Part shown: piece after piece, positions 55,454 through 57,163 of the stretch
Numbering within the stretch: the first letter of the stretch is position 1
Layout of the letters: each line of letters starts with the position of its first letter
Assembly: GCF_054482595.1 (NCBI RefSeq)
Contig: NZ_CM137008.1
Strand: one strand, 5' to 3'
DNA length: 64,000 bases
Translations under genes and position numbers: made by a program
The notes under the pieces: model-generated
What the model saw: the letters and a program-made list of their open reading frames with translations, nothing else
Databases searched by the model: none
Told to the model about the DNA's origin: nothing

Positions 55454-56248
55454 ATGAAGAAGCCTCTGGTTATTATCAGTGCCTGTCAGTTCACCAGGCT
55501 GGCACTGGAGTCTCTCATCCCAACGGACAGGTATCTCGTGCGGGTGTACAGCAACGTCACTACAGAGGTTGAATTCATTTTAAAGACCTCCTGTGGCTAC
55601 CTGTTAGCTGATATCCCTTCGCTTCCTTCGGGGGAGTTGGTTCTTCTGGCTTGTCTTGTCCGCTTGCGGAGTGATGCCGGGCAATGGCAGGTCTGCCTGA
55701 CCGGTGACTCCGACTGGTTCGATAATGCTCCTGCTGCAAGTCTGTACTATGGCTTCCCACGCATAAGCACCCTGCTGACAGCGAGTCGTTATCAGAATCA
55801 AATTATCCGCTGGTTACTACGTCCTTTGCCCGGCGATATGAGTGATTTCTGGCTGCTGACTGCACGGGAGTTGAGCGTGCTTAAGATTCTGATGCAGGGC
55901 ATGAGTTTCAGTGAGATTGCCCGTTATGAACAACGCAGTTCAAAGACCCTGCATGCGATTGCCACACGGGCATTAATGAAACTTGGACTGGGAACTCTGA
56001 GCGATTTCAGGCTGCTCTATACGGGATGCGGTGACAGCAGAGTGAAACGGAATATACGGCTACATGCAAGATATGTCGGACAACATTCCGCTCATCGACT
56101 CACTCAGTATGTGCAGAACATGGTATCCGGAATTCTTTATCCAGAGAAAGTTGCCGTTGGTGAATCAATAAATTCTGACGCCATATCCGGAAAAGTACTT
56201 TCCGGACAAAGAAAAAATATGTCTAAAAAAAGACCAGGATTGTTATGA
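55454..56248 (+). CDS. ipuR: LuxR-type (HTH) transcriptional regulator, IpuR-like
   Basis: HTH segment ELSVLKILMQGMSFSEIARYEQRSSKTLHAIATRALMKLG; first gene downstream of the switch. Confidence 0.6.
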   Translation: MKKPLVIISACQFTRLALESLIPTDRYLVRVYSNVTTEVEFILKTSCGYLLADIPSLPSGELVLLACLVRLRSDAGQWQVCLTGDSDWFDNAPAASLYYGFPRISTLLTASRYQNQIIRWLLRPLPGDMSDFWLLTARELSVLKILMQGMSFSEIARYEQRSSKTLHAIATRALMKLGLGTLSDFRLLYTGCGDSRVKRNIRLHARYVGQHSAHRLTQYVQNMVSGILYPEKVAVGESINSDAISGKVLSGQRKNMSKKRPGLL

Positions 56249-56347
56249 CACAGCAGCGTTGTTACTACCCCCCACTGCGGCGCATACGGACTCGCTACAG
56301 TGTAGGAGCCAAAATATTTCTACTGCTCTGGGCTGCAGGATTGGGAG

Positions 56348-56374
56348 GCACGCTGTACAGCCTGTACAGCGTGC
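56348..56374. promoter_or_regulatory. 27-bp perfect palindrome (13-bp arms, 1-bp centre) between the two LuxR-type genes
   Basis: gcacgctgtacag-c-ctgtacagcgtgc. Confidence 0.5.
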
Positions 56375-56401
56375 TGGCGTACTGACATCTGTGAGGGAAG
56401 G

Positions 56402-57163
56402 ATGCGTTTCGTTCTTTTCTGTCCCTCAGGAATCGTACCAGCGCAGTTCGTAGCTCTATCAACCGGTTCTGTCGGCAATGTTACCTGCATCAAAACAGAA
56501 GAGGAGTTACGCAATAAATTGCGGCACAGGCCACAGAGTGTCGTGATATCGGCAGGGCGACCTGCCGAATGCGCTGAAATGTGGTTCCGATTTTATCGGG
56601 ATCACTCATTCGTGGTGGTGTTGTGCGTCGCGCCCTTTTTTCTGCCACCGGATGTGAGTATTTCTGGCGTTCTCAAAAACCTGAGGTTACTGAAACCAGG
56701 AATGTCAGTAGAGCATGTCATCAGTATTGCAAATACCTCTGGTGGGTTTTCAGGGCTGAAACATGCAGAAATTTTGCCAGTTATGGACAGTTACTCTGTC
56801 TTTATGAAAGAGGTGAATAACCGCACAAAGACAATCGTCATGTCAGAACGCTTCCCGGAAAAGCAAAAGAAGGTGTTGTCGTTGCTTCTTGCCGGACACA
56901 GCTGGGAATACAGTGCGCAGTTTCTCAAAACGGGGATAAGACAGATATGGCTTGCCGAGCAGTCGCTAAAAAAGCGTTGGGGAATACCGGACAGCATGTC
57001 ATTGCGGGAAGCCCTGCTGCTGAGCAGCAATAAATTTCACGGTGATGGAAATGCATTGGAAAAAACGAATGCCATGACATTGCGTGAAAACGGAAATACC
57101 AACAGGTATTCCGTGGTGGTAAATGCAGGGACGCAGGCTTTATCTCTGCATAAATATAAATAA
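56402..57163 (+). CDS. Second LuxR-type regulator-like protein (paralog or divergent partner)
   Basis: C-terminal HTH-like segment KKVLSLLLAGHSWEYSAQFLKTGIRQIWLAEQSLKKRWG; same frame as the upstream regulator ORF but separated by several stops. Confidence 0.5.
   Translation: MRFVLFCPSGIVPAQFVALSTGSVGNVTCIKTEEELRNKLRHRPQSVVISAGRPAECAEMWFRFYRDHSFVVVLCVAPFFLPPDVSISGVLKNLRLLKPGMSVEHVISIANTSGGFSGLKHAEILPVMDSYSVFMKEVNNRTKTIVMSERFPEKQKKVLSLLLAGHSWEYSAQFLKTGIRQIWLAEQSLKKRWGIPDSMSLREALLLSSNKFHGDGNALEKTNAMTLRENGNTNRYSVVVNAGTQALSLHKYK

Follow-up and report, generated by a model that had tools for sequence, protein, structure and literature searches.

Tandem ORFs behind the hyxS switch of Escherichia coli PAI-X: evidence for two separate regulator-like genes, hyxR and hyxA

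Are two ORFs that lie in tandem and in one frame upstream of an autotransporter gene the halves of a broken regulator gene, a gene and its duplicate, or two genes in their own right? The question is raised by an E. coli locus within the stretch of 64,000 nucleotides analysed here (the window), for which a first-pass annotation had pointed to two ORFs sharing a reading frame. Our ORF map confirms that both exist on the + strand, with 264 and 253 aa, and that the frame is indeed common to them (56402-55454 = 948 = 3 x 316). Our results show that each of the two ORFs codes for a complete regulator-like protein of its own, and the overall explanation, two separate regulator-like genes hyxR and hyxA placed behind the hyxS switch of the island PAI-X, is in our judgement very probable.

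The locus is PAI-X (fimX/ipbA, hyxS switch, hyxR, hyxA, hyxB), a phase-variable island of E. coli. A RefSeq record of 100% identity has ipbA, hyxR, hyxA and hyxB annotated, with hyxR and hyxA as two genes, and places betA on one side of the island and ykgH on the other; the ORF map and this annotation give the order fimX/ipbA-hyxR-hyxA-hyxB between these flanks (Table 1). The name hyxA reportedly dates from 2012. The pair is common: hyxR and hyxA are both found in about 1,850-1,902 of 5,426 complete E. coli genomes, with 96.5-100% identity of the hyxR-hyxA segment across genomes. All 38 full-coverage matches of a spread sample had two genes in a segment of identical length (1,710 bp), and hyxA was annotated in every full-length match among the 70 listed from two E. 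coli searches with 1,921 and 1,903 matching records. The first-pass annotation had assigned the locus to ipuR. That assignment was wrong, as the single recombinase, the 16-bp repeats, the hyxR-hyxA-hyxB order and the RefSeq names at 100% identity demonstrate, and the puzzle over the two tandem ORFs arose because two similar islands were confused; ipuA/ipuB-ipuS-ipuR-upaE is a locus separate from fimX-hyxS-hyxR in the same strain (PMC6083910). Nor is the second ORF unannotated, as had been considered possible: it is hyxA, with published mutant phenotypes (PMC3789825). As worded, the earlier observation adds nothing new, both genes being already named, annotated and phenotyped.

Table 1. Features of the PAI-X locus, in positions of the window
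Feature	Position	Strand	Evidence
ipbA / fimX / hbiF, tyrosine-type DNA invertase	54560..55123	+	Pfam Phage_integrase 1.1e-49; NCBIfam tyrosine-type DNA invertase 9e-75; identical RefSeq sequence
hyxS invertible promoter element	55136..55414	.	16-bp inverted repeats TGATTCAAAATGTCAG (55136-55151) and CTGACATTTTGAATCA (55399-55414), by repeat search
hyxR, LuxR-family regulator, 264 aa	55454..56248	+	Pfam, NCBIfam, RefSeq and PDB profile matches; family alignment A2
A7 homopolymer near hyxR 3' end	56225..56231	+	Sequence
46-codon ORF MTQQRCYYPPLRRIRTRYSVGAKIFLLLWAAGLGGTLYSLYSVLAY	56245..56385	+	Intact in 9 E. coli alleles; PGAP annotation in L002; homologous ORFs elsewhere
hyxA, 253 aa	56402..57163	+	RefSeq annotation; AlphaFold model for domains
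hyxB (alias upaB), outer-membrane autotransporter, final operon cistron	57205..59502	+	Pfam Autotransporter 3e-47; RefSeq; naming PMC3789825

The switch begins close to the invertase gene, the hyxS repeats starting 13 nt past its stop. RefSeq places the ipbA start at an ATG, and the ORF can be extended upstream to a TTG at 54503. A third, direct copy of the repeat (TCAAAATGTCAG, 55412-55423) makes the right end of hyxS a 19-nt perfect palindrome (55392-55430). The repeat length of 16 bp is also the published one (PMC6083910), and others have shown that FimX/IpbA inverts the 279-bp hyxS directly upstream and turns hyxR expression ON or OFF; hyxS inversion has been selected as a transient form of phage resistance (PMC12361893). 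Both orientations exist among genomes, the opposite one being natural in L005, and in L006 there is a 273-bp deletion between direct repeat copies. A promoter scan gave no site within hyxS on either strand, the interior of hyxS could be aligned in neither orientation with the Salmonella and L009 switches, and an Rfam scan of 54400-57400 returned only a spurious sub-threshold miRNA match, on the palindrome.

The product of the first gene bears a GerE-type HTH at aa 135-181 (nt 55856-55996), which scores 27.8 bits with Pfam GerE (PF00196) against a gathering cut-off of 23.5 and is matched by PDB profiles of PdeL, RcsB, VraR, GerE and NarL. The AlphaFold model of HyxR (pLDDT 49) is too poor for a fold search or for comparison with HyxA, and HyxR gave a weak match to the TorR receiver in the PDB profile search (E 0.087). 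An invariant D53 lies at the end of a predicted strand, and the acidic pair after strand 1 is absent; the C-terminal tail from about aa 195 is poorly conserved (family alignment A2). Neither HyxR nor HyxA had a Pfam match to any autoinducer-binding family at E<=1 and, by that test, they are not quorum-sensing LuxR proteins. An allele whose A7 homopolymer is one A shorter encodes a HyxR of 363 aa, which continues, in the third frame, through the spacer and beyond the start of hyxA; it corresponds to P0057, NCBI-named, with 43 member sequences on 33 contigs. Another sequence, P0083, was considered as IpuR and rejected, since its context (IS elements and a CaiF/GrlA-like gene) is that of another hyxR-like gene and not of the ipu locus.

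HyxA gave no Pfam or NCBIfam match at E<=1-10 and no relevant match in the PDB profile search, and GerE (PF00196) was matched at E<=10 neither by HyxA nor by seven homologues. Its fold is assigned from a single AlphaFold model, made with no more than 8 sequences. This model predicts a CheY-like receiver of (beta-alpha)5 fold in aa 1-119 (nt 56402-56758) and a four-helix LuxR-like HTH domain in aa 131-193 (nt 56792-56980; helices 131-147, 153-163, 168-174 and 179-193), with a mean pLDDT above 90 per 10-residue block over aa 131-200. Foldseek aligned about 210 columns of the predicted structure to full-length FixJ, RcsB, StyR, VraR and DesR with probability 1.00, and RcsB structures were among the best matches; over the whole chain the TM-scores stay low (0.3-0.5), as the domains are oriented differently. 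As modelled, then, the architecture of HyxA is of the NarL/FixJ type, with a receiver fold first and a four-helix HTH after it. The first-pass statement that both ORFs carry LuxR-like HTH segments thus stood for HyxR by sequence, whereas in HyxA the domain escapes detection by sequence and is seen at fold level only.

The predicted receiver of HyxA lacks a phosphorylation site. Strand 1 leads into CPSG and strand 3 into GRP ('VISxGRP'), with neither an acidic pocket nor a phospho-acceptor Asp present, and in alignment A1 no member of the HyxA family has an Asp after strand 3 or an acidic residue after strand 1. All that remains is K98-P99 (Lys-Pro after strand 5), which is not invariant in the family. 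R180 and Q181 are conserved in the putative recognition helix; the tail from aa 211 (the C-terminal 43 residues) is non-conserved and predicted to be disordered. Homologues in other enterobacterial loci share 27-53% identity and the same domain layout. No histidine kinase gene was found near hyxR/hyxA, the neighbours being betA, the invertase, the autotransporter, ykgH and ykgG.

Could the two proteins be related by duplication? The second ORF had been offered as a possible paralogue, and we found no recent one: BLASTP of HyxA against HyxR gave E = 0.62, that is, no similarity, and hhalign of the two families returned a probability of 0.35% and nothing significant. When hhalign was limited to the C-terminal domains, equivalent HTH positions were aligned, but with E 0.033 and a probability of 1.6%. 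HyxR and HyxA are therefore not recent duplicates, and are at most ancient members of one superfamily. Among the options proposed earlier, a divergent co-regulator is the nearest fit.

That the locus holds two genes, and not one gene interrupted by a nonsense mutation, had been stated by the first-pass annotation and is upheld by the conserved stops, by purifying selection and by the separation of the genes in divergent loci. The several stop codons said to divide the ORFs are exactly two in the 153-nt spacer, the TGA of hyxR itself (56246-56248) and a TAG (56303-56305), both conserved in 9 alleles. Purifying selection acts on the two genes alike (pN/pS 0.225 for hyxR and 0.354 for hyxA). In the divergent loci L009, L010, L012 and L013 the hyxR-like and hyxA-like genes are paired but separate, and one continuous gene was found in none of them; this recurring pairing suggests that the proteins work together. 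The two genes lie in one frame in only 2/5 homologous loci, against a chance expectation of 1/3, so the common reading frame of hyxR and hyxA is a coincidence.

The spacer is not the debris of a broken gene, as a small conserved ORF, a third beside hyxR and hyxA, lies there in a different frame. The ATG of this 46-codon ORF overlaps the hyxR stop (ATGA) and is preceded by AGGA 5 nt upstream, and the ORF ends 16 nt before hyxA. Its product, with a basic N-terminus and a hydrophobic C-terminal helix in the hydropathy profile, is probably a small membrane protein. Within E. coli its pN/pS of 0.93 is uninformative, with only 11 variable sites in the spacer, so support for the ORF comes from divergent loci: between the window and L010, pN/pS is 0.34 in the ORF frame and about 1.1 in the other two. 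Homologues immediately precede the hyxA-like genes of L009, L010, L011, L012 and L015, the small ORF is kept even where hyxR is absent, and it is the positional homologue of Salmonella STM0717. It has to be weighed when hyxR or hyxA insertion mutants are read, because of polarity and coupling.

What would these genes do? Mutants of hyxA and of hyxR, both complemented, have an altered O-antigen chain length and a lowered serum resistance, the loss of viability in serum being 3 logs greater for the hyxA mutant than for the hyxR mutant (PMC3789825). FimX/IpbA flips hyxS and sets hyxR ON or OFF. We propose that the cistrons downstream would be co-transcribed and switched along with hyxR, because the gaps are short (an overlap of 4 nt at the first junction, distances of 16 and 41 nt at the next two), no site resembling a terminator was found in them from hyxR to hyxB, and hyxRAB is handled as an operon in the literature. 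HyxA may be a phosphorylation-independent orphan response-regulator-like transcription factor, with putative DNA binding, or a partner protein, and its activity would be set by the ON state of the switch. More tentatively, and as a reading less likely than not, the unit would be a conserved three-part module instead of two genes. In it the 46-residue membrane peptide (STM0717 family), which is missing from the annotation of most E. coli genomes, would be coupled at translation to the pseudo-receiver regulator HyxA and act jointly with it. The pair, with or without HyxR, would form a portable phase-variable control unit for glycans linked to LPS, governing the chain length of the O-antigen in E. 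coli and lying upstream of T1 and O9-like clusters in Salmonella.

If one ancestral LuxR-type gene had been split by nonsense mutations, the locus would be a pseudogene and the ORFs its halves. The single frame, the distance of only 51 codons and a handful of database proteins, 400-424 aa long, that cover both ORFs (P0006, P0019 and P0028) would fit this, but an N-terminal alpha/beta domain and a C-terminal HTH are encoded by each ORF separately, both stops are kept in 9/9 alleles, divergent loci carry two genes in varying relative frames, and the spacer contains a conserved ORF in another frame. The spanning entries, of which two come from Logan assemblies of sequencing runs and the third comes from an NCBI assembly, were rejected as fusions: they have several frame changes, form single-member clusters and look like indel errors. 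We give a split gene practically no credence. Hardly more probable is that hyxA, the decayed duplicate of the earlier proposal, is a decaying or untranslated copy of hyxR without a function of its own. HyxA does lack a Pfam or NCBIfam family and its 43 C-terminal residues are unconserved and predicted disordered; against this, its similarity to HyxR is undetectable, hyxA (pN/pS 0.35) is intact in all alleles checked, including that of O157:H7, where hyxR, fimX and hyxB are broken, homologues at 27-53% identity retain the domain layout, and the serum-sensitive hyxA mutant was complemented (PMC3789825).

The remaining alternative, which we hold to be unlikely but a good deal more serious, is that HyxA does not itself bind DNA and is an auxiliary partner that modulates another FixJ/NarL-type regulator, HyxR or RcsB, by heterodimerisation, perhaps under the control of the small membrane peptide whose ORF lies just upstream. 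RcsA, BglJ, GadE and MatA are auxiliary regulators that act with RcsB. The very divergent HTH sequence of HyxA, the rank of RcsB structures among its best structural matches, the repeated pairing of hyxR-like and hyxA-like genes, the conservation of the small ORF upstream of hyxA-like genes even without hyxR, and the similar LPS phenotypes of the two mutants (PMC3789825) all point this way. However, the HTH is well formed in the model (pLDDT above 90, aa 131-200), the conserved R180 and Q181 fit direct DNA contact, and in Salmonella no HyxR homologue accompanies that of HyxA.

HyxA, published with "no functional prediction", gains a predicted structural assignment, a receiver-like domain without phospho-acceptor and a LuxR-type HTH. 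Natural alleles with hyxS inverted, deleted or placed before a frameshifted hyxR are useful for typing the switch.

Compared with the NarL/FixJ response regulators (RcsB, FixJ, VraR and DesR, including atypical phosphorylation-independent members), HyxA shares the order of receiver and four-helix HTH in its model, but has no acidic pocket, phospho-acceptor Asp or linked kinase and falls below GerE sequence-family detection, while the HTH of HyxR matches these regulators by sequence. The window is a member of the PAI-X islands fimX-hyxS-hyxRAB of extraintestinal pathogenic E. coli (UTI89, CFT073 and EC958), alike in genes, order, chromosomal site, 16-bp inverted repeats and single FimX/IpbA invertase; the published description has four genes (fimX, hyxR, hyxA and hyxB) without the 46-codon ORF, and nothing essential otherwise differs. 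The ipu locus of CFT073 is similar in design, with a Fim-type tyrosine invertase, an invertible promoter, a LuxR-type regulator gene and an autotransporter gene. It differs in its two adjacent invertases, its 7-bp repeats (one inside ipuA) and its two-gene operon ipuR-upaE without a hyxA-like gene (PMC6083910), whereas the window has one invertase, 16-bp repeats and three or four cistrons after the switch. The Salmonella module STM0716-STM0717-STM0718, upstream of the T1 antigen cluster, lacks a hyxR homologue (L011), and its downstream cargo is a polysaccharide cluster and not an autotransporter; STM0717/STM0718 are reported to be dispensable in E. coli for making the T1 antigen (PMC11294581). 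STM0718 lies behind a switch and ahead of a phase-variable cluster for a polysaccharide linked to lipid A-core (PMC11294581), and is 36% identical to HyxA in alignment A1 (39% in PMC11294581). The module has a FimX-like invertase, the small ORF and the HyxA homologue in the same order as the window, shares with it the small ORF motif RY(S/T)xGA-hydrophobic, and carries inverted repeats reported to be identical (PMC11294581).

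Our results show that the two tandem LuxR-type ORFs are hyxR and hyxA, which are separate genes of the PAI-X pathogenicity island, described as fimX plus hyxRAB (PMC3789825). The observation made in the first-pass annotation is real, and its coordinates agree exactly with those of the two plus-strand ORFs; its interpretation was built on a mistaken locus identity, and annotation and published work had already supplied the answer for both genes. In window-identical records the gene order is ipbA (annotated "also known as HbiF and FimX"), hyxR, hyxA and hyxB, with the products "LuxR family transcriptional regulator HyxR", "protein HyxA" and "outer membrane autotransporter HyxB". 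The locus had been taken for one with a single ipuR; the annotation of these records, the single invertase and the 16-bp repeats identify it as PAI-X. Since the identical records and the PAI-X identity make the second ORF hyxA, it is not an unannotated gene, as had been thought possible. The block is flanked by betA on one side and ykgH/ykgG/ykgF on the other, and megablast found segment 54400-57300 in 1,920 of 5,426 complete E. coli genomes. The mechanical ORF list begins the invertase at TTG 54503 (RefSeq, ATG 54560) and the autotransporter at TTG 57172 (RefSeq, ATG 57205); from ATG 57205 the latter carries a typical signal peptide, MKNNKAFYRSALATAIVMALSAPAFA.

Features of the hyxR-hyxA locus (positions in the window)
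Feature	Position	Strand	Basis or remark
Fim-type tyrosine invertase gene	54560-55123, upstream of hyxR		Pfam Phage_integrase 1e-49; NCBIfam "tyrosine-type DNA invertase" 9e-75
hyxS inverted repeats	55136-55151 (TGATTCAAAATGTCAG); 55399-55414 (complement)		perfect, 16-bp
hyxR	55454-56248	+	ORF map; 264 aa
46-codon ORF	56245-56385	+	frame differs from hyxR/hyxA; ATG overlaps hyxR stop (ATGA); ends 16 nt before hyxA
hyxA	56402-57163	+	ORF map; 253 aa
Autotransporter gene	57205-59502, downstream of hyxA		Pfam-based

The starts of hyxR and hyxA lie 948 nt apart, which confirms the common frame that had been described. The emphasis placed on it was misplaced: in the divergent loci L009, L010, L012 and L013 (other assemblies) the hyxR-like and hyxA-like genes are separate and their relative frames vary (2, 1, 2 and 0, respectively), so the shared frame in the window is chance. 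Straight-through translation meets two in-frame stops, TGA 56246-56248 (hyxR's own) and TAG 56303-56305, and not the "several" first reported; it still holds that a single gene would need more than one nonsense change. Both stops are kept in 9/9 alleles (the window and eight fetched loci; one allele has a third stop), and this conservation, with the separate genes of the divergent loci, upholds the exclusion of one gene carrying a single nonsense mutation. The 1,710-bp hyxR-hyxA segment is 96.5-100% identical in all 38 full-coverage rows, a sample spread across the ranked matches (1,903 records), and two genes are annotated in every one of them. Three long database proteins spanning both genes (P0006, P0019 and P0028) are regarded as indel artefacts because of their repeated frame changes, their single-member clusters and their sources (Logan assemblies of sequencing runs for two of them, an NCBI assembly for the third).

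With pN/pS at 0.225 (hyxR) and 0.354 (hyxA) by pairwise Nei-Gojobori estimates over eight alleles, both genes are under purifying selection. The proposal that the second ORF is a decayed duplicate conflicts with the ratio of hyxA, with the integrity of hyxA in O157:H7 and with the lack of detectable similarity between HyxR and HyxA; the same comparison (BLASTP E = 0.62; hhalign probability between the two families 0.35%) speaks against recent paralogy. In O157:H7 FRIK2069, fimX carries a frameshift, codon 56 of hyxR is a stop and hyxB is split, while hyxA and the 46-codon ORF are intact; the island is decaying around hyxA in this strain.

A LuxR-like HTH had been attributed to both ORFs. For HyxR this stands, as a LuxR/GerE HTH (aa 135-181) scores above the Pfam threshold and the family profile matches in the PDB the HTH domains of PdeL, RcsB, VraR, GerE, EvgA and NarL; the N-terminal domain has no more than a weak receiver match (TorR, E 0.087), and the AlphaFold model of HyxR is not reliable (pLDDT 49). 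An A7 tract (56225-56231) lies near the hyxR 3' end, and an allele one A shorter (database protein P0057, NCBI-named, 43 member sequences from 33 contigs) encodes a 363-aa HyxR that reads the third frame through the spacer and then over the hyxA start; it may represent a lineage allele or the result of slippage.

For HyxA, the HTH is supported at the fold level and not by sequence, because the sequence tests are blank while the model matches NarL/FixJ-type regulators. HyxA has no match in Pfam or NCBIfam, and HMMER, run exhaustively against 1.84 billion representative sequences, returned only 29 proteins at E<=0.001, of which seven are full-length homologues (27-53% identity to HyxA; family alignment A1), none with a GerE match; the family profile found nothing relevant in the PDB. 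In a domain-restricted hhalign comparison, residues 157-177 (KVLSLLLAGHSWEYSAQFLKT) pair with the corresponding HTH stretch of HyxR (SVLKILMQGMSFSEIARYEQR), at a score short of significance (E 0.033). The AlphaFold model derived from alignment A1 (pLDDT 77, pTM 0.72) shows a (beta-alpha)5 domain (aa 1-119), a linker and four helices (aa 131-193), and its best Foldseek PDB matches are all full-length NarL/FixJ-type regulators over ~210 aligned columns, with FixJ first (8e-6), followed by RcsB, StyR, VraR, DesR and LiaR. The predicted receiver site is degenerate: strand 1 is followed by CPSG and strand 3 by GRP, at the expected phospho-acceptor Asp position, no family member in A1 has an Asp at the end of strand 3, and only the Lys-Pro after strand 5 remains, which is not invariant across the family. 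No kinase gene is found among the neighbouring genes. Since hyxR and hyxA were already termed "putative transcriptional regulators" (PMC11294581), our fold assignment refines this view and does not overturn it. This assignment and a conserved small ORF between both genes are the modest additions of this work.

This 46-codon ORF is intact in 9/9 E. coli alleles; it carries a PGAP annotation in some genomes, and most of the RefSeq E. coli records that were examined leave it out. Proteins identical or near-identical to its product are catalogued under the name "hypothetical protein" on >1,000 contigs. In L009, L010, L012, L015 and Salmonella L011, a homologous ORF immediately precedes the hyxA-like gene; these homologues share an RY(S/T)xGA motif and, after it, a hydrophobic stretch. 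The L011 homologue is by position STM0717, sometimes annotated "membrane protein", which has no apparent role in T1 production (PMC11294581); beyond mention of STM0717 we found no literature on this ORF. Its net positive N-terminus and one hydrophobic segment suggest a small single-pass membrane protein, and the maximum 19-residue Kyte-Doolittle mean is 1.5-2.5 across the homologues. Between the window and L010 (65% nucleotide identity), pN/pS is 0.34 in the ORF frame, compared with about 1.1 in each of the remaining frames; within E. coli there is no selection signal (0.93, with very few sites), the ORF is absent from L013 and L016/L017, and it may be a mere coupling or leader ORF.

The expression of hyxR is switched by FimX-driven hyxS inversion, and HyxR, a repressor of hmpA, has an effect on macrophage survival (summaries in PMC3789825, PMC6083910 and PMC8777976); hyxS inversion was also recovered in transient phage resistance (PMC12361893). 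Both orientations are found in natural genomes. In strain Eco_24-2013 (L005:880-1175) hyxS is reversed with respect to the window and an IS66 insertion has truncated the invertase gene. Strain KKo009 (L006:1100-1207) lacks 273 bp, and the junction that remains, 58 bp upstream of hyxR, has no switch. This is exactly the deletion that recombination would produce if the left repeat paired with a third copy, in direct orientation, at the right end; the L005 and L006 intervals both correspond to window 55136-55427. The right boundary (55392-55430) is a perfect palindrome with 19-nt arms, in which the right inverted repeat abuts this third copy of the recombination core. The sole Rfam match of the region, mir-759 on this palindrome, is spurious (24.6 bits; gathering score 100).

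Each cistron is preceded by a Shine-Dalgarno motif, the successive gaps are a 4-nt ATGA overlap, 16 nt and 41 nt, and the gaps between hyxR, the 46-codon ORF, hyxA and hyxB contain nothing that resembles a terminator. In EC958, hyxA and hyxR mutants, with complementation, showed shifted O-antigen chain length and lowered serum resistance, with a larger effect for hyxA (PMC3789825). We propose that hyxS in the ON state would yield one transcript for HyxR, the small peptide, HyxA and HyxB, and that HyxA may be a phosphorylation-independent, orphan NarL/FixJ-like factor, either binding DNA directly or partnering with HyxR or RcsB. HyxR and HyxA probably cooperate, because divergent loci again carry both.

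A third locus type (L013:4182-6207, L019:5001-7016) carries a hyxR-like gene (57% identity), a hyxA-like gene (40%, alignment A1) and a CaiF/GrlA-family gene, with no recognisable small ORF; in L018/L019 an IS1 element occupies the expected position of the hyxA-like gene. The ipu island is similarly built and different: ipuA/ipuB-ipuS-ipuR-upaE is a two-gene operon beside two invertases with 7-bp repeats, and fimX-hyxS-hyxR is a separate switch with 16-bp repeats in the same strain (PMC6083910), whereas the window has one invertase and 16-bp repeats. In Salmonella enterica (L011:4637-12702), a FimX-like invertase is followed, without a hyxR homologue, by a HyxA homologue with the small ORF and then by a polysaccharide cluster (UDP-galactopyranose mutase, glycosyltransferases and an ABC transporter), a setting that parallels the O-antigen chain-length phenotype of the E. 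coli hyxA mutants.
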